From a virus (lineage: Duplodnaviria; Caudoviricetes): DNA of 64,000 nucleotides. The position numbers and the translations under genes were made by a program. Positions within the stretch are counted from its first letter, which is position 1, and the number at the start of each line of letters is the position of its first letter. The stretch lies in IMG/VR virus record IMGVR_UViG_3300031414_000005; one strand, 5' to 3'. This document shows positions 4,694 to 14,756 of this stretch, in pieces. The notes beneath the pieces are model-generated. The model saw only the letters and a list, made by a program, of their open reading frames with translations. It was not told where the DNA came from and made no database searches.

Positions 4694-5119
4694 ATGAGCG
4701 CGAAAACCGATCTACTGGTCGCTAACCGCCGGGTGTCCTTCAGTGTGGCTGCACCGCAAGTGTTGGGGTCGGACTTTGGCAGTGTATTGGTCAACGCCCG
4801 ACTGAACTATGACCTGGCAAGTCGTCTGGGGTATTCACCGTCTCAGTTGCACAACCTGGTCTACCCGTACATCAAAAACAACCCCGGTGTCAGCAATGAC
4901 CCGCGGTCGTACGAGTACATCGAAGTCACCAAGCCCGGTGGGAGCACCACCTTACTGGGGTTGCCGTGGATTGTTGAGTCTTCTATCCTGACTGCCGAGT
5001 CCACGACCTGGCAGTACCAGATCAGCAACATGGGGATTGTGGAATCCCAATTGCTGGATGAGTGGCTAAAGACCAACGGCTTCAAAACGTTCACCAAAAT
5101 CGCACTGGATAATACCTGA
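4694..5119 (+). CDS. Conserved phiKZ-like hypothetical protein (about gp49 position)
   Basis: 141 aa with a Y-x-x-I...LGLPWI motif I recall from phiKZ-like phages; lies just before the DNA polymerase operon. Confidence 0.7.
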   Translation: MSAKTDLLVANRRVSFSVAAPQVLGSDFGSVLVNARLNYDLASRLGYSPSQLHNLVYPYIKNNPGVSNDPRSYEYIEVTKPGGSTTLLGLPWIVESSILTAESTTWQYQISNMGIVESQLLDEWLKTNGFKTFTKIALDNT

Positions 5120-5122
5120 CCT

Positions 5123-5151
5123 GAGAGGCTGCTTCGGCGGCCTCTCTTTTT
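5123..5151 (+). terminator. Intrinsic terminator
   Basis: GAGAGGCTGC-TTCG-GCGGCCTCTC followed by T5. Confidence 0.9.
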
Positions 5152-5182
5152 CAGCTGCTCATTTTTTCTTTACATTAAAACG

Positions 5183-5194
5183 AATTGATATAGC
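5183..5194 (+). promoter_or_regulatory. Candidate phage promoter motif B (AATTG(A)TATAGC)
   Basis: Intergenic motif that recurs at 16970 and 18259, with weaker copies at 21314 and 52043. Confidence 0.45.
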
Positions 5195-5222: not shown

Positions 5223-5588
5223 GTGTCCGACAAAATTGAGATCATGTTACCCCCGGACTTGACCACCTCGACCGTGACGATCGAGAACATCAAAAATTTA
5301 AGTGTGGAGTACATCCACCTGCAACACCTGGAGTTTGAAGATCAGCAGGCAGAAACCCAGTTCGACCAGTTTCAACTGATGACCATCCACCAAATGATAC
5401 GGCGTTATATCGACCGTGACGGGTTGCCGGTTGACACCCCACAAGGTTACACCAGTTATTTCACGAACTTGCGTAACCTCCTGAACGAGAACAACAGCTT
5501 TCGTCATTATGCGGTTGAGCGCAGTAAGATCAAGTACCACCCGATCACCCGTGTGATGACCTTTCCACTCCGCAGTAAATTACATTAA
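5223..5588 (+). CDS. Hypothetical protein
   Basis: GTG start with a strong GGAGGA RBS; 121 aa. Confidence 0.8.
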   Translation: MSDKIEIMLPPDLTTSTVTIENIKNLSVEYIHLQHLEFEDQQAETQFDQFQLMTIHQMIRRYIDRDGLPVDTPQGYTSYFTNLRNLLNENNSFRHYAVERSKIKYHPITRVMTFPLRSKLH

Positions 5589-5598
5589 GTGACGTCCT

Positions 5599-7872
5599 AT
5601 GGATCCATTCATTAAAGACCCCAAGGAGTACACCCGTGACTTCTTGTTGCGGGAACGGTATTACAAAGACGCAGCACAATACCTGCATCTGCATACCGGT
5701 AAACCGCTAGACCAATGTGAAGCTTATGTCCGCCGGGAAACCGGGCCAGGGGGTAAGTTTGAAATGGTTGACCCGCGTGTTAAGGTGTTGATCAAAAACA
5801 AGGTGGGGGACAAGGAACTCAAGTACACCACGTTCAGTAAACTCATTGCCGCGGTAAAACGCCGTGGGGCGATTCTGTCACCGTCACTGGTGGCCTATGT
5901 CCCGCATGCGGAAGAAGAATCTCTTAATGCGATCGTGATGGACGCCAACATCAACGCCCGTAAAGTCGAGAAAGCCGCGAAGTTTAAAGCCAAAGCAGAA
6001 GGTAACCTGCTACTGGCGTCGATCAAAGACCTGCTGCAAAACGGGTTAAAGATCTTTAACAACGGACAATCGGGTGCCTACTCGTCATCAGGGACACCGC
6101 TGTACAACAAGTCAGCGCATACCTCACTGACGTCATGCTGTCGCACCATCACCAGTTCGACTAATGCATTTAACGAGAAATTCCTGGGGGGTAACCGCCA
6201 CTACCACAACCCAGAGATCGTGCGCACTAACTTCATGGTTATCATTAATAACGTTAACTTTGAACGTATCGAACAGGTCATGACGAAGTACGGCCTGGTG
6301 CACCCCACCGTGGATGCGGTGATGGAGATGTTACATCACTCAACTTACCGGTACTGGGAGCTCCCCAAAGAGTACCGTAAGCTGCGTGAAATGGTGGAAC
6401 GGCTATCCCCGATTCAACGGTCGGCGATCATGTACACCAGTGACATGTACAGCCTGCGTATGTCGAACCCGGATTTCGTGCGTCGCTTCTTAACCGAGCT
6501 TGCAGATATCCGTCAGGACTATGAAGTGGACCGTCTGCCTGACATCAAGATGAACTGCCCGGACTTGAAAACCCTGTCGGTGATGAAGGTGGCCAAGGAA
6601 TCGGTGGATTTATCGAAGTGGCAGGACAACACCTATGTCGAGGCGTACAAACGTCAGGGTGGTGACCCCAAAGACGAAAAGGCCTTTAAGAAGTGGGTGG
6701 GAAGTGTTGTTGACAAAGAACCAAAGGAACTCCGTGGTCTGAGTCACATGACCGAAGAGGAACGGGTGTACAACGCCAATCAAGAGAAGCACATCAAGCA
6801 TCTCCTGATTCGCAACTACCAGCATGTCCTGCAAGTTACTGAAAAGTATGCAGATTTCATCGAAACATTCTGGCGTACGGACCTGACTCCATCGTCAATT
6901 GCCTCGATCCTCGGGATTGAACGTGAGATTGTGTTAACCTCGGATACGGACTCCTCTATCTTTACCCAGGAAGGTTGGGTGAACTGGATGTACCCTGACC
7001 GTATTGATCGACCGAAGCGTATCGCGGTGAATGCCACGATGACGTACCTGATTCGTAAGCAGGACATCCATCTGCTGGCGATGATCTCGGCGAACATCGG
7101 GGTACCACTAAAACACCTGTTCCGCCTCACCATGAAGAACGAGTATTACTTTGGTTCGTTTGCGCTGACCAACATGTCCAAGCACTACTTTGCCTGGATG
7201 ATTGCACAGGAGGGAGCGTTCTTTAAAGAACGTGAGTTGGAACGTAAAGGGGTGCACTTGCGTTCCTCGAACCTACCGAAGTCAATCCTGGATCAGGGGA
7301 CCAAGTTCATCACGGACATCCTGGACCTGGTGGCTGACAACGGGTCGTTCTCCGCGGCAGAACAGCTGAACCGTATTGGTAATCTGGAACGTCAGATCAT
7401 CAACTCCGTGAAAGGCGGTGAATCGACGTACTTGTCAAAGGCACAGATTCGTCCAATCGAAACCTACAACAAGCCGATGAGCCAACCGTACTTCTACCAT
7501 GTCTTGTGGGATGAAGTCTTTGCGGACCGTTACGGTAAAGCACCACCGCCCCCGTACCTTGGGATTAAAGTCAACGTTGACCTTAACAACAAAACGAAAG
7601 TGTTGGCCTGGATTGAGAACATCGAAGACCACGGTGTGCGTGAACGCATGCGGGTGTTCTACGACACGTACTCGCGCACCAGCTTCAACTCCTTCATCGT
7701 CCCCATGGACATTGTCTCTAACATCGGCGGGATGCCACAGGAGATCATTGACTGTGCGGATATCCGGACCATGTTGCAAGAGAACCTGCACATGGTGTAC
7801 GCCCCACTGGAATCAACCGGTCTGTACTTCGCCAACCGGTACAACACCCGGTTAGTGTCTGATGAACACTAA
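5599..7872 (+). CDS. Family-B DNA polymerase, catalytic (fingers/palm/thumb) subunit, phiKZ gp50-like
   Basis: Motif B-like KIFNNGQSG and motif C SDTDS; no exonuclease motifs and no motif A; synteny. Confidence 0.9.
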   Translation: MDPFIKDPKEYTRDFLLRERYYKDAAQYLHLHTGKPLDQCEAYVRRETGPGGKFEMVDPRVKVLIKNKVGDKELKYTTFSKLIAAVKRRGAILSPSLVAYVPHAEEESLNAIVMDANINARKVEKAAKFKAKAEGNLLLASIKDLLQNGLKIFNNGQSGAYSSSGTPLYNKSAHTSLTSCCRTITSSTNAFNEKFLGGNRHYHNPEIVRTNFMVIINNVNFERIEQVMTKYGLVHPTVDAVMEMLHHSTYRYWELPKEYRKLREMVERLSPIQRSAIMYTSDMYSLRMSNPDFVRRFLTELADIRQDYEVDRLPDIKMNCPDLKTLSVMKVAKESVDLSKWQDNTYVEAYKRQGGDPKDEKAFKKWVGSVVDKEPKELRGLSHMTEEERVYNANQEKHIKHLLIRNYQHVLQVTEKYADFIETFWRTDLTPSSIASILGIEREIVLTSDTDSSIFTQEGWVNWMYPDRIDRPKRIAVNATMTYLIRKQDIHLLAMISANIGVPLKHLFRLTMKNEYYFGSFALTNMSKHYFAWMIAQEGAFFKERELERKGVHLRSSNLPKSILDQGTKFITDILDLVADNGSFSAAEQLNRIGNLERQIINSVKGGESTYLSKAQIRPIETYNKPMSQPYFYHVLWDEVFADRYGKAPPPPYLGIKVNVDLNNKTKVLAWIENIEDHGVRERMRVFYDTYSRTSFNSFIVPMDIVSNIGGMPQEIIDCADIRTMLQENLHMVYAPLESTGLYFANRYNTRLVSDEH

Positions 7873-7883
7873 AAGGAATCCTG

Positions 7884-8144
7884 ATGCGCTTAACGGAAGC
7901 ATTGCAGGGTAAACATCCAAAACTGGAGGGGTGTTCGCACCCCTCCTTACCACCGCGGTTTAAATATCATGTCCTGACAAAGGCCAATTTGGAAACCGGA
8001 TGGCAAGAATGGCAATGTGTGGTGAACCCCAGCTTACATGTGGGGTATGTTGATTGTGTCCTCCCGGAAGAAGGGTGGGAGATCGTTAACATTCGGGCAC
8101 ATGGCGAACTTTTAAAAGCGGCATTCAAAAAGAATAAGGATTAA
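7884..8144 (+). CDS. Hypothetical protein, possibly a highly degenerate Tad2/DUF2829-like domain
   Basis: Begins MRLTEAL and has D...GWEIV near the end, matching the two ends of the Tad2 pattern weakly. Confidence 0.55.
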   Translation: MRLTEALQGKHPKLEGCSHPSLPPRFKYHVLTKANLETGWQEWQCVVNPSLHVGYVDCVLPEEGWEIVNIRAHGELLKAAFKKNKD

Positions 8145-8147
8145 CAC

Positions 8148-8858
8148 ATGACCGACAAAGGTATTGAAGTTGTATACATTAGCAAAGATATCCGCGCTTA
8201 TCTGCTGGAAAGCGTCGAGGATGTGGAAGTCTTCAGTCGTCACCACCCCAGTGTAGCACTTCCGAAAGGGTGGACCACACTGGTTGTCGTGTTGTACTAC
8301 GCTAACGGTGAAGAATTCATTATCGATATAAAAAGCGATGAAGTCGCTGAGGACTTTATCGCGCGTAACCGGTCAACAGATGGTGCGTTGCAATCAGCCA
8401 ATAAAGTCCGCGCCCATAACGGGTTGGCGTTATTAAGTCCGGCGACATTCATCGCTTACCTGAACGAGGATGGTTATTCCATGGACGGTTACTTGGCAGC
8501 TGCTAACAATGAACGGCGGGTTAATGGAGAACCTGAATACACCATGGAGGAATTCATCGCCAGTCGGCGCGGTGCTGTTCGTCTGAACGTGGAGAAATTG
8601 GAGGGGTGTTTCCCACAACCTGACCATGGTTTCGGTAAAGCACTGGAAGCCCTGAGTCATGGCAAACGTGTCGCACGTCGGGGATGGAACGGCAAAGAGA
8701 TGTTTGTTGAAAGTGTCTCTGGTGCCGAAGCCAAACTCGCTAACGGTTGCACTGTGGCATTGGAAGCGTTCTTTGTACTGCGTTCACCTAACGGTCGTTA
8801 TAACACCTGGGTGCCGTCAGTCAGCGATCTCATGGCACACGACTGGTATGAACTCTAA
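8148..8858 (+). CDS. tad2: Two-domain protein with a C-terminal Tad2 (DUF2829) Thoeris anti-defence sponge domain
   Basis: FGKALEALSHGKRVARRGWNGKEMFV...WVPSVSDLMAHDW matches the Tad2 pattern FGEAL..LK.G..V.R.GWNGK.MF...W.PSQ.D.LAEDW; domain spans about 8622-8858. Confidence 0.85.
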   Translation: MTDKGIEVVYISKDIRAYLLESVEDVEVFSRHHPSVALPKGWTTLVVVLYYANGEEFIIDIKSDEVAEDFIARNRSTDGALQSANKVRAHNGLALLSPATFIAYLNEDGYSMDGYLAAANNERRVNGEPEYTMEEFIASRRGAVRLNVEKLEGCFPQPDHGFGKALEALSHGKRVARRGWNGKEMFVESVSGAEAKLANGCTVALEAFFVLRSPNGRYNTWVPSVSDLMAHDWYEL

Positions 8859-8868
8859 GGGGTTTTAA

Positions 8869-9552
8869 ATGAAATACTGGGATGCTATTGGGATGTTAAC
8901 GTGGGGTGATGAGCGCATGGCTGTGCAGGCGAGTACACCTCAGCGTGAAGAAGCTATAATGCGTCAGCCAGATGGTGAGATCAAACTCGTCAACTTACGC
9001 AACGCTACTCTGAGTGATTACAACCACGCAGGAATGAACAACGACAACTGGGCGCTGGCACATGTCAGTAACGATGCAGGGGTGATCCATTTCCGTCACC
9101 TTACGGTTAGTAGCAATCTTACCGATGCCATTAAGTGCCACCCCGACTCGAAGTTGTACCGTCGTCTGAGTTGGGACCTTGATGTTTGGCTCGACCCGGC
9201 AAAGGGTCTGCGCAGTGACGATTCGTTAATGGGTTGGGAACCTTACGACCTGACAAAGGGCGAGTCGCTTGCAGAAGACTGGGTGGCAAAGACCCAGTAC
9301 ACCTCCGAACACACACCTGGAATTGAATACACCGTGGGGCAACGGATGGTGGGGTTCCACAAAAAGACTGGATTGACCAACGACCAGCTGATTGGCAAAG
9401 AAAGGATTGCCAGTGTCATCACCGTGTTGCACGGTATGCGGGTTGCGAGCTCATCCCCTGAACAGTGTCGGTTGTTAAGTGTGGCCATCACCAAACTGGA
9501 AGAGGCTGACCTCTGGGTAACGAAAGCCCTGGGGGTGTTTGATGACGCTTGA
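8869..9552 (+). CDS. Fusion of two degenerate Tad2-like domains and a C-terminal Acb2/Tad1-like helical hairpin
   Basis: MKYWDAIGML..G...NDNW, then R..SW...WL...LAEDW, then RLLSVAITKLEEADLWVTKA (Tad1/Acb2-type T..EEA.MW helix). Confidence 0.65.
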   Translation: MKYWDAIGMLTWGDERMAVQASTPQREEAIMRQPDGEIKLVNLRNATLSDYNHAGMNNDNWALAHVSNDAGVIHFRHLTVSSNLTDAIKCHPDSKLYRRLSWDLDVWLDPAKGLRSDDSLMGWEPYDLTKGESLAEDWVAKTQYTSEHTPGIEYTVGQRMVGFHKKTGLTNDQLIGKERIASVITVLHGMRVASSSPEQCRLLSVAITKLEEADLWVTKALGVFDDA

Positions 9553-9748
9553 TGAGGCAGTGGCCAGTGCAGGCGGGTGTCACCGTTATGTGAGTCGTCG
9601 TTGCTGGGCACATCATCCCAACCCCTACCGGATTTCGTACCTGGGTTTATCGGTAGTCTATGTGGTGTGTCGTAACCCGTTTGGGCGTATCCGTCCCTGG
9701 GTGCCCAAGAAAGACGACGCGGTTGCAACCGACTGGTATGTTATGTAA
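9542..9748 (+). CDS. Small Tad2 (DUF2829)-like protein
   Basis: MTLDEAV...VSRRCW...WVPKKDDAVATDW, 68 aa. Confidence 0.7.
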   Translation: MTLDEAVASAGGCHRYVSRRCWAHHPNPYRISYLGLSVVYVVCRNPFGRIRPWVPKKDDAVATDWYVM

Positions 9749-9755
9749 ATCCATT

Positions 9756-9780
9756 AGGGAGGGCTTACGCCTTCCCTTTT
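9756..9780 (+). terminator. Intrinsic terminator
   Basis: AGGGAGGGC-TTAC-GCCTTCCCT followed by T run. Confidence 0.75.
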
Positions 9781-9797
9781 AACCGAACGAGGGTGTC

Positions 9798-10088
9798 ATG
9801 AGTAAAACGTCCCACCGTCTGCAAAAGCAGCGCTCAGAAGCCATGAGCTATGAAGAGGCCATGGTCAAGCTGAATGCCGGGTTTGCTATCACGCTGAAGA
9901 CCTGGGGTGATCAGGGGTTTTATATTGTCAAGGTAACCGAAGCTCGTCCAGTGCGGGGATATGAGCCGGGGGATATCGTGCGTAAGTGGCGTTATGGTCG
10001 CTTCTACAGTTTCCCGATGAGCATGTATGTGAACTCCCATAACTGGTTGCTGTATGACGAGACGAAAGACCGCCCTGCTTATTACTGA
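9798..10088 (+). CDS. Degenerate Tad2 (DUF2829)-like protein
   Basis: MSYEEAMVKLNAGFAITLKTWGDQGFYI...SHNWLL. Confidence 0.6.
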   Translation: MSKTSHRLQKQRSEAMSYEEAMVKLNAGFAITLKTWGDQGFYIVKVTEARPVRGYEPGDIVRKWRYGRFYSFPMSMYVNSHNWLLYDETKDRPAYY

Positions 10089-10395
10089 TCGTGCTAAAAT
10101 ACCGCTTCTATTTATTTTAAAACAAACTTCCCCTAGATTCTATGTCCCGTACAGCTTTTCGAAGTCGTCACGAACCGGGATCGGGGGAACCACTACAAAG
10201 GATGCGTCTGCGCCGCCTGTCTGTGTTTAAAAGTCACTATCATACTCTACCACATTAACAGATACACTCTGGGGGAAAGGGGGTAAACTTTATAAAGGGG
10301 TTTATCAGGAAGAGGGGGAGGCCCCAAGCCGGACACGCTGACGTATTTATTCTAATCATCCGGAGCGAAAGCTCTTTTTAAGGACTGCTGAAAAA

Positions 10396-11388
10396 ATGAA
10401 AAACAAAACGCCGATCTATGATCCAAAACGCGGTACGCAACCCTTTAGATTTGAAGACGTGTATTGTGCAAAGAATGCAGAAGCCCGTCCTGATGAGATC
10501 GACCAGATGTACGTTCTCATGGTGGGTGACATGGTCGTCGGTGATGTGTGCTGGTATGTACACGCAGTAGACCCGGAAACGTTCGAACCCACCCTGGTCC
10601 AAATATCCACGAAAGTAAAACCCGATACCCCACTCATAAGGAACAACGACCAACACGTGCTGGCCGCCGTGACGTATGACGACCTGGTGCTACATCATGA
10701 AACAGTGGTGGCGGCGCAGAACCATACGCGTCCACTGGGGGTGGACTTGGTCAAGGCGATGTATGAAGGTTACGGGTTGAAGTTTGATCAGTTTGAACTC
10801 ATCAATACCTTGTACCTGTGTATGGAAGGGGATCGTGATGGTGGGCCAGGGGCGGTATCACCGGACTGGCGGGTGAACGTGGTGGCTAACGTGGCGAACG
10901 GGGGCAATGTCGATAACATCCGCCAGGCCTTTGACACTTTATTGCTGTCAGCGCCGGACATGAAACACCCGCTGGAGGAACTGATTGAAAACGGGATGAG
11001 GATGTTCCATCGCCAGTGTGTGATTCAAAATACCCAGGAGTCGATCACTTCACTGTTAGGCACGTTCTTCAGTATGCAAACGACCCAACCTAACACCTCA
11101 CGCTCAATCCAACACCTTGGAAAACGTGTGGGCGTGTTTTGCACCTCCAAAGATGACCGGCGGAGCCTCCACCCGATTCTGGCCATGGTGTTGGATTTGG
11201 TGGACCTGTCCCTGTGGAACCGCAGCGGATCGATTTCGTATCTGCTGGGTGACCAAGCCAACAGCCCGGAGCAGTTGGGGTATTACTTTGAATACTTCGG
11301 CGAAACCGGTACGGTGGAATACCCGGCGGGGATTATCATGGGTGGTGACAAAGGTGTCATCTTACTGCACCCACCAACCCGTAACTAA
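10396..11388 (+). CDS. Hypothetical protein
   Basis: 330-aa ORF, AAGGA RBS; no motif recognised. Confidence 0.8.
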   Translation: MKNKTPIYDPKRGTQPFRFEDVYCAKNAEARPDEIDQMYVLMVGDMVVGDVCWYVHAVDPETFEPTLVQISTKVKPDTPLIRNNDQHVLAAVTYDDLVLHHETVVAAQNHTRPLGVDLVKAMYEGYGLKFDQFELINTLYLCMEGDRDGGPGAVSPDWRVNVVANVANGGNVDNIRQAFDTLLLSAPDMKHPLEELIENGMRMFHRQCVIQNTQESITSLLGTFFSMQTTQPNTSRSIQHLGKRVGVFCTSKDDRRSLHPILAMVLDLVDLSLWNRSGSISYLLGDQANSPEQLGYYFEYFGETGTVEYPAGIIMGGDKGVILLHPPTRN

Positions 11389-11431: not shown

Positions 11432-12523
11432 TTATCTTTCTACCAGGATACGAATGTCGCCCAGGGTGCTGAGAACCCAGGAGCGTACCGCAGGATCAAC
11501 ATTTCCCACCTCCATCAGCCGTCCGTTCTCCAGTTCAGTGATCGAACGTTTCACGGTGTTGAGGAGATCTGTTAATGCCCCGAAATGTAACTGTTGCATT
11601 TTCAAGGTGCACCAGATCAATGTCAGCTTGCTGGCTTCCCATGCCCAAGTAGTGGGTCGCACGTCAAGCACATCCGGGATTTTCACCGCCTGATACCCGT
11701 CGCCCCAGAGGGTGGGGTAGTACAACATGTGATGGCGGACGTTCTTGATTGTGGTGCCAGCCAGTGCATCCAGTTGGTACTCAATCAATTCATCCAGCAG
11801 GTTGTGGTTATCGGTGACCGCAATGGACGGTGTCACCAGTTGATCACCCCCTAACCCAAAGTATGCCGCATGCATCCGGTTGATCACCGCCTGGTTGTTA
11901 AAGGAGCGCAACAGGTTGACCAACGGGTACATCATCAGGAAGTGGGTGTACGTTTCTGCTTCCAGTTTGTTTTCTGCGACATAGTTCCGGTAAAGTATGT
12001 ACTGCAATGCCAGCAAGGGCACATCGACGGTATACACCACAGGGGATGTTTGTTTTTCAGGTACCGGGTCACGGCCATCAAACGGCAGGTATCGAAGACC
12101 TGTTTGCCCATGACGGATCACCTTTATCGGCTCCAGGTCACGCCAACCAATTAACCAATCCCGGATAAAAGGTTCGCCACCCAGCCCGATGATGACGTCC
12201 TGGTACCCATCCCCTGTGAAGTTGTGTCGACTCTTTGTCCCTGCTGCGCGTTGCTCACACGTGAAGTCCACGGCCGCGGCATACTTGAGATAGTTGTCTT
12301 TAATGAGGTAATAATAAGCGCGATAATCCTGACCGGTAAATGCCGGTAGCTGACGCAGTAACGTGACCAACGGGTGGTCCCCTTTGGTAAAGTAGGTGGT
12401 GTTGCGATAATGCTTTTGCACCTTCTCATAGTTCTGCTGTTCCAGCCGACGCAAGTTCTCCAGCCGCGGGTGCATCTTCACCGGATAACTCTGGGTGTTG
12501 TTAGACTCGTACAGTTGATACAT
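11432..12523 (-). CDS. Conserved phiKZ-like protein divergent from chimallin (gp52-like, probably virion-associated)
   Basis: 363-aa ORF; minus-strand position between the DNA polymerase and chimallin, as I recall in phiKZ-like genomes. Confidence 0.6.
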   Translation of the reverse strand: MYQLYESNNTQSYPVKMHPRLENLRRLEQQNYEKVQKHYRNTTYFTKGDHPLVTLLRQLPAFTGQDYRAYYYLIKDNYLKYAAAVDFTCEQRAAGTKSRHNFTGDGYQDVIIGLGGEPFIRDWLIGWRDLEPIKVIRHGQTGLRYLPFDGRDPVPEKQTSPVVYTVDVPLLALQYILYRNYVAENKLEAETYTHFLMMYPLVNLLRSFNNQAVINRMHAAYFGLGGDQLVTPSIAVTDNHNLLDELIEYQLDALAGTTIKNVRHHMLYYPTLWGDGYQAVKIPDVLDVRPTTWAWEASKLTLIWCTLKMQQLHFGALTDLLNTVKRSITELENGRLMEVGNVDPAVRSWVLSTLGDIRILVER

Positions 12524-12702: not shown

Positions 12703-12776
12703 ATAACGATGCAGTGCACTGTGTCATTTATACTTTGAGCTCAAGTAGTTTAACTTTTTATTTAAGGATTGTTCTA

Positions 12777-14756
12777 ATGCGTACACCTGAAGAAAACACC
12801 AACCAGTCTTCTAGCAACGATCTGGCTAACCAGCTGGACAACGCTCTCAACAACGATCGTCAGCAGTCTACCGCACGTCCTGCGGCAGATGAGTCTGAAG
12901 CCCGCCCAACGATCAGCCGTGCACGTCATCGTCGTGTGTCAGTTGATGAAGGCGGCGACAGCTTCCGCAGTAAACTGGCCGCGATCAACGAGCACATCAA
13001 AGCAGACCCTGCTGCTGATGGCTTCGGTCAGTCCTGGGACCTGGTACCAATCCTGGCCAGCCAGAACAGCCTGAACTTCGACGGCGCAGCGTACGTTGTT
13101 CTGTTCGATAACGTGAGCAATGGTCGCACCGATCAGATGGCGTATTTCTACACCATGATGTTCGAAGATGCCGGTGCCCTGCTGCAACCCCGCAGCGAGC
13201 GCAACCAGCTGACTGGCGAAGCCATGCAGATCCCGGTCATGGCAGGCAGCCAGTACGACGCGATCTACATCCGCGCCGTGATCAAAACGATTGCACGTAA
13301 GTTCAATCTGCCAGAGAAAAACGTGCGTAACGCCGGCGGCATGGCTGTCCCAAGCTTTACGCAGATGACCTCACTGGCCATCCGTGACCTGCTGCTGAAT
13401 GCCGATAACGCCGTCAGCGCACGTGCAAACATCGACTCTGGCTACCAGATGGAAGATGCGATCGGCATGGCGGACATCGGTCCTAAAGACCAGACGTTCC
13501 TGCGCTTTGACTTCAACCAGTCTCAGACCCTTCAGTTCGACAACGTACCAAACCGTACCGACGTGCAGGTGACACTCAGCAAACGTTCAGGCAGCCAGGG
13601 TCAGACCAGCCGCGATGAAACCATGCTGAAAGTCAACGCGATGCTGATCGCTCAGTATAACGAACCGAACAAACAGCCGCAGTATAACGAGTACAACCAG
13701 CCGGTCATGCCGTCTACTCAGGTTTACTCACCACTGCTGGTCATCACCGGTTCCGAATCTGGCCGTGCGCTGAACCACGTCGAAAGTCTGGAACAGCGTC
13801 TGCTGGCAATCGCCACTGCGATGTACCTGAACCGTAATGCGAACTGGATCAACATCCTGACGCCGAAGAAAGGTAAAGAAGATCTCACCGACATCGGTGC
13901 CTTCAATATCGACTTCGTTCGCAACATGAAAGGTCATCCGGCGTTCGCGCAGGCTGAGCAAGCTGGTAAGTTCAACCCGGAGAAAGTGGATACCCACGGT
14001 CCATCATTCGGCCAGGCTGAAGTGTTCCAGTACATCAGCAAGATGTTCTTCCCGAACCTGACCATCGCAATGGACGTGCTGCAAGGCGGTGAGAAATCCT
14101 GGATCGATAACCTGATCCTGCTGGCAAGCATGGCGCCAAACGCAACCATCGACATCACTGATGAAGATAACCCAGTTGCGCGTGCCAACCGCCAGATCAT
14201 CAGTTCCATGAACCTGACCTCTAAAGGCAAGTTCAAAGAGCTGCTGGAAGAAGGTTTCGGTAAGTTCCGTCTGGGTCAGCCGCTGGTCATCAACGACGGC
14301 ATCCTGTACCCTGCGGGTTACTACAACTTTGCCGATGAGCGTCGTGACATCCGTGACTTCAGCCTGCTGGAGATCCTGAACGTCGCCGGTAACGAGCAGT
14401 ACGAATGGGTTGAGCGCTGGAAACGTGCTACCTCTCCGAACTGGAATTATGACAATAACTTCCGTATCGTTGAGATGCTGACCATCCTGACCAAATTCGC
14501 ACCGGGCTTCAAACACACCGGTTACTACAGCCGTCCGATCATCAACCCGAATCTGCTGGCAACCTACATGGCCGCTCTGGCGCGTGCAGGCCTGGCACCG
14601 GGTCTGGGTAACTTCACCAGCACCTTCAACGAAAACAGCTATGGTCAGTCTACTGCGGCTCAGTTCTCTCTGGGTGCAGATATTTCTTACGGCCAGCAGC
14701 AGGGCTCTCCAGCCCAGGGCAACCAGCAGACCAGCAACTGGTTCTTCAGCAACTAA
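12777..14756 (+). CDS. chmA: Chimallin, major phage nuclear-shell protein
   Basis: 659 aa from ATG 12777 (AAGGA RBS). Motifs AMDV..GGEKSW and GYY....RRDIRD match chimallin. Disordered N- and C-terminal segments. Directly upstream of the nvRNAP beta'-N gene. Confidence 0.9.
   Translation: MRTPEENTNQSSSNDLANQLDNALNNDRQQSTARPAADESEARPTISRARHRRVSVDEGGDSFRSKLAAINEHIKADPAADGFGQSWDLVPILASQNSLNFDGAAYVVLFDNVSNGRTDQMAYFYTMMFEDAGALLQPRSERNQLTGEAMQIPVMAGSQYDAIYIRAVIKTIARKFNLPEKNVRNAGGMAVPSFTQMTSLAIRDLLLNADNAVSARANIDSGYQMEDAIGMADIGPKDQTFLRFDFNQSQTLQFDNVPNRTDVQVTLSKRSGSQGQTSRDETMLKVNAMLIAQYNEPNKQPQYNEYNQPVMPSTQVYSPLLVITGSESGRALNHVESLEQRLLAIATAMYLNRNANWINILTPKKGKEDLTDIGAFNIDFVRNMKGHPAFAQAEQAGKFNPEKVDTHGPSFGQAEVFQYISKMFFPNLTIAMDVLQGGEKSWIDNLILLASMAPNATIDITDEDNPVARANRQIISSMNLTSKGKFKELLEEGFGKFRLGQPLVINDGILYPAGYYNFADERRDIRDFSLLEILNVAGNEQYEWVERWKRATSPNWNYDNNFRIVEMLTILTKFAPGFKHTGYYSRPIINPNLLATYMAALARAGLAPGLGNFTSTFNENSYGQSTAAQFSLGADISYGQQQGSPAQGNQQTSNWFFSN

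Follow-up and report, generated by a model that had tools for sequence, protein, structure and literature searches.

A Variable Gene Island of a Nucleus-Forming Phage That Probably Encodes Tad2- and Acb2-Type Sponge Proteins

Introduction

A clade-specific island of genes located behind the DNA polymerase gene of a nucleus-forming phage probably encodes at least two genuine sponge-domain proteins that sequester immune nucleotides. The island occupies positions 7884–11388 of the 64,000-nucleotide stretch analyzed here (the window), which comes from an IMG/VR virus record of 232,948 bp (IMGVR_UViG_3300031414_000005) that has direct terminal repeats. Its genes, named o1 to o6, are all on the plus strand. 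The two proteins in question are o2, which carries a canonical Tad2 domain, and o3, which ends in a predicted Acb2-type domain. The locus concentrates sponge-family domains: in the whole 233-kb genome, all three PF11195 hits and the sole PF24729 hit fall in this cluster.

A preliminary description of the locus had placed five consecutive genes behind the DNA polymerase, and all five open reading frames (ORFs), o1 to o5, are indeed present on the plus strand at these places. All five are also kept in three Logan contigs (L024, L025, and L026). A more divergent contig, L027, the polymerase of which is 88% identical, has o1, o3, and o5 and is devoid of o2 and o4. The pairwise ratio of nonsynonymous to synonymous substitution rates (dN/dS) is 0.05–0.34 across o1–o5 vs. 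0.01–0.07 for the polymerase. The five genes are under purifying selection and evolve faster than the polymerase.

Sponge Domains of o2 and o3

The gene o2 (8148–8858) encodes an N-terminal domain followed by the canonical Tad2 domain. The latter (residues 161–235; 8628–8852) matches PF11195 with 72.8 bits and an E-value of 3.4e-20, above the cut-off of 25 bits. Its best matches among solved proteins are MoTad2 (9eib) and Tad2 8v3e, both at E 2.4e-13, and SPO1 gp34.65 is matched at E 1.5e-8. The canonical copy reported earlier at 8622–8858 is thereby borne out. In the structures of HgmTad2, gcADPR is bound between W21/N22/G23 and W87/L88/S90/T92/D93, and this pocket is reported to be conserved in about 99% of Tad2 proteins. 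Pocket motifs of the window proteins were read from anchored motif windows and compared with the published ligand contacts. In o2 they are W-N-G (W180-N181-G182) and W-V-P-S-V-S-D (W221-V-P-S224-V-S226-D227). It is the only protein of the island that retains the complete pocket, with every residue type lining the gcADPR/His-ADPR pocket.

The N-terminal domain of o2 (residues 1–155; 8148–8612) is fast-evolving, mosaic, and fused to the Tad2 domain. Taken alone, it has no Pfam or PHROG hit (in PHROG, nothing below E 0.09), and only its residues 115–160 align, namely to extensions of PHROG_872. Its dN is 0.22–0.50 and its dS far exceeds that of the flanking genes; to L026, for instance, dS is 0.65 vs. 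0.08 for the polymerase. The raised dS suggests that the domain has been exchanged as a module by recombination.

The second protein, o3 (8869–9552; 227 aa), consists of three regions, of which the C-terminal one (residues 150–227; 9316–9552; Y154, K177, R201, T208) is predicted to be a complete Acb2-type domain. Its PF24729 score is 23.4 bits (25.5 bits in L026), which is under the cut-off of 27. An exhaustive HMMER search of 1.84 billion representatives with residues 147–226 yielded only proteins of 74–273 aa at E 3e-6 to 8e-4. All ten of the homologues that were scanned match PF24729, and nine of them exceed the cut-off, the remaining one reaching 26.1 bits. Invariant in the alignment of this family are K177, R191, E198, R201, S204, T208, A213, and A220. 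The ESM model of residues 150–224 superimposes on a 76-aa Acb2/Tad1 cluster with a template modelling (TM) score of 0.88 over 75 residues. An AlphaFold2 (AF2) model of o3, built from a 14-row alignment, is confident only at 150–224, with a predicted local distance difference test (pLDDT) value of 70–88, and shows a two-helix hairpin (helices 171–193 and 197–226). A Foldseek search of the PDB with the o3 model gave nothing below E 0.1, a bare hairpin not being discriminated by fold search. The earlier mention of an Acb2/Tad1-like hairpin is thus confirmed, and the domain turned out to be bigger than stated.

The top two PDB sequence hits of the o3 C-terminus are Tad1 (8kbb) and the Acb2 protein T4 Vs.4 (7uq2). 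In these weak alignments (E 0.04–0.14), R201 and T208 line up with D61/T68 of T4 Vs.4 and with the CmTad1 R..T pair. When mapped through the T4 Vs.4 alignment, they fall on the positions of R67 and T74 of PaMx33 Acb2, the residues that bind cA3. The aromatic residue Y154 is conserved and K177 is invariant; their spacing is 23 residues vs. 15 for Y11/K26, the cyclic-dinucleotide site of PaMx33 Acb2. Hadary et al. (bioRxiv 10.1101/2025.08.24.671296) list the exact 227-aa o3 protein among the Acb2 homologues of their Table S1, from two IMG/VR phyllosphere records. The protein was not among the 84 tested there. From the same sub-clade of Acb2, protein no. 15 of their Table S2 was tested and inhibited one CBASS.

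Divergent Tad2-like Proteins

The gene o4 (9542–9748) encodes a protein of 68 aa. Its PF11195 score is 24.6 bits vs. the cut-off of 25, its alignment to PHROG_643 spans the entire protein, and its comparison with an 18-sequence Tad2 alignment gives an hhalign probability of 94%, with z scores of 11.5 (local) and 13.9 (global); all hhalign z scores are against column-shuffled nulls. These profile comparisons confirm o4 as a full-length short Tad2-like protein, in agreement with the clear copy noted earlier at 9542–9748. A Kringle-like match of o4 (E 0.07) was set aside as a chance C-R-N-P..R-P-W motif.

The 96-aa product of o5 (9798–10088) gives signals that are weak but concordant, and they support its assignment as a divergent Tad2-like protein. 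It matches PF11195 with E 0.009 and 16.9 bits (E 4.4e-4 and 21.2 bits for the L027 orthologue) and PHROG_1048 with E 6e-5 and 9e-6, and the hhalign z score against Tad2 is about 5. In the ESM Atlas its feature score is 0.91 with 206 shared features, and the Atlas model superimposes on Tad2 clusters with TM scores of 0.59–0.68 across 72–79 residues. The protein retains the N-terminal helix and W36 but not the C-terminal pocket motif. The o5 profile has no hit among PDB sequences, and a word-based homologue search with o5 found this phage clade alone.

Within o3, residues 84–141 (9118–9291) may tentatively be regarded as a degenerate Tad2-like module, in which R99 and W102 keep the register and the C-terminal motif takes the form Y126..T129..E132..D137-W138. 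The window copy has no Pfam hit. The 28% identical orthologue of L027 matches PF11195 with E 1e-3 and 20.0 bits over profile positions 16–71. Against Tad2, the module reaches a local hhalign z score of 6.5 and a global one of merely 2.0. Its local z score is 6.3 against x25, an extra Tad2-like gene of L025.

Two further regions are conserved and of a fold that is not assignable, and their being Tad2 copies is not supported by sequence comparison. One is the conserved ORFan o1 (7884–8144; 86 aa). Its orthologues are 64–98% identical, with dN/dS of 0.09–0.28. It has no Pfam, PHROG, or PDB hit (the orthologues, scanned against PHROG, gave nothing below E 0.09), its profile found nothing among PDB sequences, and a word-based search retrieved this phage clade alone. 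The hhalign z score against Tad2 is 2.3 across 7 columns, and the models are of low confidence (ESM pLDDT 0.42; AF2 pLDDT 44.8 with a 5-row alignment). As a Tad2 copy, o1 is therefore not supported. The other region is residues 1–72 of o3 (8869–9084), claimed as the first Tad2 copy of this gene. It is likewise unsupported: the hhalign z scores against Tad2 are 0.2 locally and −0.2 globally, Pfam, PHROG, and PDB gave no hit, and both the ESM and the AF2 models are of low confidence (AF2 pLDDT below 50). An exhaustive profile search of the 1.84 billion representatives with the N-terminal 150 residues of o3, as well as a word-based search with o3, found this phage clade alone, and the N-terminal region has nothing below E 0.09 in PHROG.

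Instead of the "about six copies" of Tad2 in the preliminary description, three are solid (o2, o4, and o5) and one is weak (o3 84–141). Of its four degenerate copies, o5 is supported and o3 84–141 weakly so, whereas o1 and o3 1–72 are not. In the PF11195/PF24729 profile check proposed there, o2 passes the cut-off, whereas o4, o5, and the Acb2 domain of o3 are just under or below it.

The divergent members differ from o2 in the pocket. The two motifs read W-A-H (from W22) and W-V-P-K-K-D-D (from W53) in o4, W-G-D and S-F-P-M-S-M-Y in o5, and W-D-L and Y-D-L-T-K-G-E in the o3 module. In o5 and the o3 module the scaffold, i.e., the N-terminal aromatic..Ala helix, the Arg preceding the Trp, and the terminal D/N-W, is in register. 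The replaced pockets therefore point either to a different ligand or to no sponge role. Retargeted Tad2 pockets are precedented for cUMP, N7-cADPR, and cyclic dinucleotides (the last bound in an insertion domain). The earlier suggestion that the degenerate copies may bind different signals fits the replaced residues, but a loss of sponge function fits them equally well.

The view of the repertoire as duplicated did not hold. Only three pairs of modules are alike: the Tad2 domain of o2 and o4 (z 13), the o3 module and x25 (z 6.3), and o4 and x25 (z 4.4). The first of them is the sole significant pair of window modules, and its blastp match is limited to the last 27 residues (48% identity). At the same time, the Tad2 domain of o2 matches Tad2 proteins of unrelated phages domain-wide, with up to 44% identity over 73 residues. 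Besides these three pairs there is no significant similarity between modules, and a recent tandem duplication was rejected as unproven. The modules are too diverged for duplication followed by divergence to be separated from separate acquisitions.

Genomic Setting and Variability of the Island

Upstream, the island is anchored by the gene of a divergent family B DNA polymerase (5599–7872, plus strand; PF20286, E 3.5e-238). The protein is at most 45% identical to the polymerases of isolated phages, the nearest being those of Proteus phage 10 and the Erwinia Agricanvirus group. Chimallin is encoded 3′ of the island in the same genome. The polymerase together with the downstream chimallin identifies a nucleus-forming phage of the Chimalliviridae. 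Near-identical DNA was found in phyllosphere, leaf, soil, and viral metagenomes. A plant-associated enterobacterium or pseudomonad is the likely host. A megablast search of the stretch against 50,697 phage records gave no match. A PADLOC scan returned nothing, which is what anti-defence genes would be expected to give.

Agricanvirus and Proteus phage 10 lack the island; there, the gene directly behind the polymerase is a minus-strand gene, and the next is chimallin. The window homologues of these two genes are at 11432–12523 and 12714–14756, respectively. Since the polymerase directly adjoins the minus-strand gene and chimallin in these relatives, positions 7884–11388 represent a clade-specific insertion of about 3.5 kb. 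Its final gene, o6 (10396–11388), encodes a 330-aa ORFan with no Pfam hit and no match in the 50,697 phage records; it is kept in all four relatives, with 50% identity in L027.

The content of the island varies. In L025, the extra gene x25 (5304–5609 of that contig; 101 aa; PF11195 E 4.4e-4) lies between a conserved intergenic element and o6, and in L024 an unrelated 133-aa gene (7552–7953) occupies the same slot. The slot is being refilled. The absence of o2 and o4 from L027 and the differing extra genes of L025 and L024 thus show that the island gains and loses genes.

On the other side of the polymerase, directly 5′ of it, there is a 121-aa gene (5223–5588) without counterpart in the loci of Agricanvirus and Proteus phage 10. 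The SH3DP gene preceding it (4694–5119) is kept in those loci. Outside the window, a 393-aa ORF on the minus strand (L030:597–1778; G000:C1:190996–192177) has an N-terminal match to PF13876, the Acb4 family, with 22–25 bits vs. a cut-off of 27, covering profile positions 1–78 of 82. Here, another domain of the sponge type could be joined to a larger protein. A 157-aa ORF separates the 393-aa ORF from a GNAT acetyltransferase gene upstream.

Transcription and Intergenic Elements

A strong terminator is located at 5123–5146, upstream of the polymerase, and a consensus scan found no comparable strong plus-strand terminator from 5146 until 9757. A terminator-like plus-strand hairpin at 9757–9780 was read from the sequence: a stem-loop (9757–9776; 8 bp, TTAC loop) followed by four T. 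The consensus scan missed it because there are four T only. The hairpin stands 3′ of o4, and L027 has it behind its own o3, where G-C replaces a G.U pair; a terminator-like element is thus present where the terminator was placed earlier (9756). The spacing is 11 nt between the polymerase and o1, 3 nt between o1 and o2, and 10 nt between o2 and o3, and the start of o4 overlaps the end of o3 by 11 nt. Gene spacing and flanking hairpins are therefore in line with the proposed polymerase-to-o4 operon, and these genes probably form one transcription unit. Given such a unit, o5 would have to rely on read-through or on an unrecognized promoter.

Between o5 and o6 there is an ultra-conserved intergenic element (10110–10380, plus strand), which is nearly 100% identical across the five genomes; this identity extends to L027, where the flanking genes have dS >1. 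An AT-rich motif at its start is followed by a long imperfect hairpin (about 10128–10189) and a second domain, and a terminator-like hairpin closes it directly before o6. The genome has no second copy of it, and Rfam gave no hit; being invariant, it shows no covariation. The element is a candidate non-coding RNA or leader. The motif TTA[CT][AT]TTAAAAC[GA]AA is present at 10112–10126 and also at 5170–5184, just past the 5123–5146 terminator, where the polymerase unit follows. Possibly it serves as a phage promoter; the three matches vs. 1.5 expected are not significant alone.

Possible Functions of the Island

What the analysis shows directly is homology, synteny, selection, and motif conservation; the oligomer state, ligands, expression timing, and anti-defence activity of the island proteins are inferred. 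The sponge proteins would be translated in the cytoplasm and then assemble into oligomers (tetramers of Tad2, hexamers of Acb2). Signalling nucleotides such as those of Thoeris, CBASS, Pycsar, or type III CRISPR would be captured by these oligomers, and hence abortive-infection effectors would stay off. Against this signalling immunity the phage nucleus would be powerless. An accessory insertion in a nucleus-forming phage fits an anti-signalling role. The earlier reading of the locus as a diversified sponge repertoire stands as regards the concentration of sponge domains and the accessory insertion in a nucleus-forming phage, but not as regards copy number and duplication.

Several observations weigh against such a role. 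In the window copy, o4, o5, the Tad2-like module of o3, and the Acb2 domain of o3 are all under the Pfam cut-offs. The three Tad2-like members are without most canonical residues of a site that is about 99% conserved in Tad2 proteins. The mapping of R201 and T208 goes through a weak alignment with T4 Vs.4 (E 0.14), and AF2 gave no usable model of o1 or of the N-terminal region of o3 (pLDDT <50). Co-transcription with a replication gene is atypical of early anti-defence expression, and no RNA runs containing near-identical DNA were found.

As to the remaining proteins, it is possible, although rather doubtful, that o4, o5, the o3 module, the fused domains (the o2 N-terminal domain and o3 1–72), and perhaps o1 bind unmatched immune signals, alone or in mixed oligomers. 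If so, the diversified sponge battery would be a source of novel ligand specificities and, by guilt-by-fusion, of novel sponge folds in nucleus-forming phages. A different explanation, which we consider unlikely, is that only o2 and o3 are sponges and that o4, o5, and the o3 module are a repurposed DUF2829 scaffold serving protein binding, regulation, or as adaptors. Their replaced pocket residues agree with this, as do the label of the PHROG closest to o4 (transcriptional regulator), a DUF2829 protein once reported as an anti-CRISPR and subsequently disputed, and the finding that, out of 84 sponge homologues tested, 19 failed to inhibit any of seven systems. However, the divergent Tad2-like proteins are under strong purifying selection (dN/dS 0.05–0.08) and adjoin genuine sponges, and Tad2 homologues are known to retarget their pockets to cUMP, N7-cADPR, and cyclic dinucleotides.

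The Tad2-like proteins might also act as hetero-oligomers (e.g., o2 with o4 or with the o3 module) having composite pockets, i.e., as one multi-subunit sponge. Tad2 pockets sit at protomer interfaces, the C-terminal interface and pocket motif is common to the Tad2 domain of o2 and o4 (z 13), the 11-nt overlap couples o3 and o4 translationally, and o2 and o4 co-occur or co-vanish. Yet a hetero-oligomeric Tad2 precedent was not found in the literature searched, and the arrangement seems very unlikely. Least probable of all is that the island serves the polymerase operon as a set of accessory genes for replication or nucleotide metabolism, with an incidental likeness to sponges. The tight packing of o1–o4 after the polymerase, with no strong terminator between, would suit such accessories, but related nucleus-forming phages with the same flanking genes are without the island, and its content differs among close relatives. 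Moreover, the o2 domain retains the full Tad2 ligand pocket, and the Tad2 and Acb2 families are without a known replication role. An island with at least two genuine sponges, o2 and o3, remains the explanation that we prefer.

Fusions to known sponges have already served to find sponge families, and divergent homologues to find immune signals. The fused domains and the remodelled Tad2-like proteins of the island are therefore concrete and cheap candidates for binding screens.

Comparison with Known Systems

The gain in knowledge is incremental, since the families, the sponge principle, and sponge–sponge fusions are already established, as are sponge families with diversified specificities. What is new is that three to four strongly diverged Tad2-like modules sit together with an Acb2 domain in one variable island. 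The Tad2-like–Acb2 fusion in o3 is a probable further novelty.

Compared with known Tad2 proteins (SPO1 gp34.65, MoTad2 9EIB, and HgmTad2 8KBI), residues 161–235 of o2 give E values from 1e-8 to 1e-13 and have retained the WNG and W-[VL]-x-S-x-[ST]-D pocket motifs, but o2 has an additional N-terminal domain of 155 aa. Of the Tad2 scaffold, o4, o5, and the o3 module have the helix at the N-terminus, the first-motif Trp, and the D/N-W at the end. Unlike Tad2, they score below the cut-off, have W-A-H, W-G-D, and W-D-L in the first motif, and have S90/T92 replaced.

In comparison with Acb2/Tad1 (PaMx33 Acb2, T4 Vs.4 7UQ2, and CmTad1 8KBB), o3 150–227 has the two-helix hairpin, the aromatic-Gly N-terminal strand, the invariant Lys, and the R..7..T pair in register with R67/T74. 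The closest Acb2 sub-clade of Hadary et al. (bioRxiv 10.1101/2025.08.24.671296) shares the G-x-K-x-V-G..FNP motif. In contrast to the known proteins, which are stand-alone and 65–95 aa long, the domain of o3 is the C-terminus of a 227-aa protein and scores 23.4 bits against the Pfam cut-off of 27. As two unrelated modules in one chain, o3 resembles the established sponge–sponge fusions, namely Acb4-Tad2 of Pasteurella phage Pm86 and Tad2-Sequestin (PF21825), in which a single protein can counter two types of signal. It differs from them in its partners, a weakly supported degenerate Tad2-like module and Acb2, a pairing not found in the literature searched.

Two neighbouring Tad2-family genes are also present in the Bacillus/Staphylococcus phages phi4J1, SpaA1, and BceA1 (P60/P61). 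Those are recognizable annotated DUF2829 pairs of small temperate phages, whereas here three to four diverged modules and Acb2 occur in a jumbo phage. Single Tad2 genes are also carried by other jumbo phages, among them pEa_SNUABM_37 and 48 of Erwinia; a search near the Tad2 genes of HRDY3 and Pantoea phage Survivor revealed no Tad2 arrays, only single genes.

Nucleus-forming jumbo phages shield their DNA yet stay open to defences that signal through small nucleotides. According to a 2026 review, Tad1 of phiKZ is the sole anti-defence protein so far reported in jumbo phages. Like the proteins proposed here, it is a sponge against CBASS and Thoeris in a nucleus-forming jumbo phage, but it is single, stand-alone, and injected with the virion, whereas the present island is a multi-gene combination of Tad2 and Acb2 family domains behind the DNA polymerase gene. 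Beyond phiKZ Tad1, this locus would represent a second and richer sponge arrangement.

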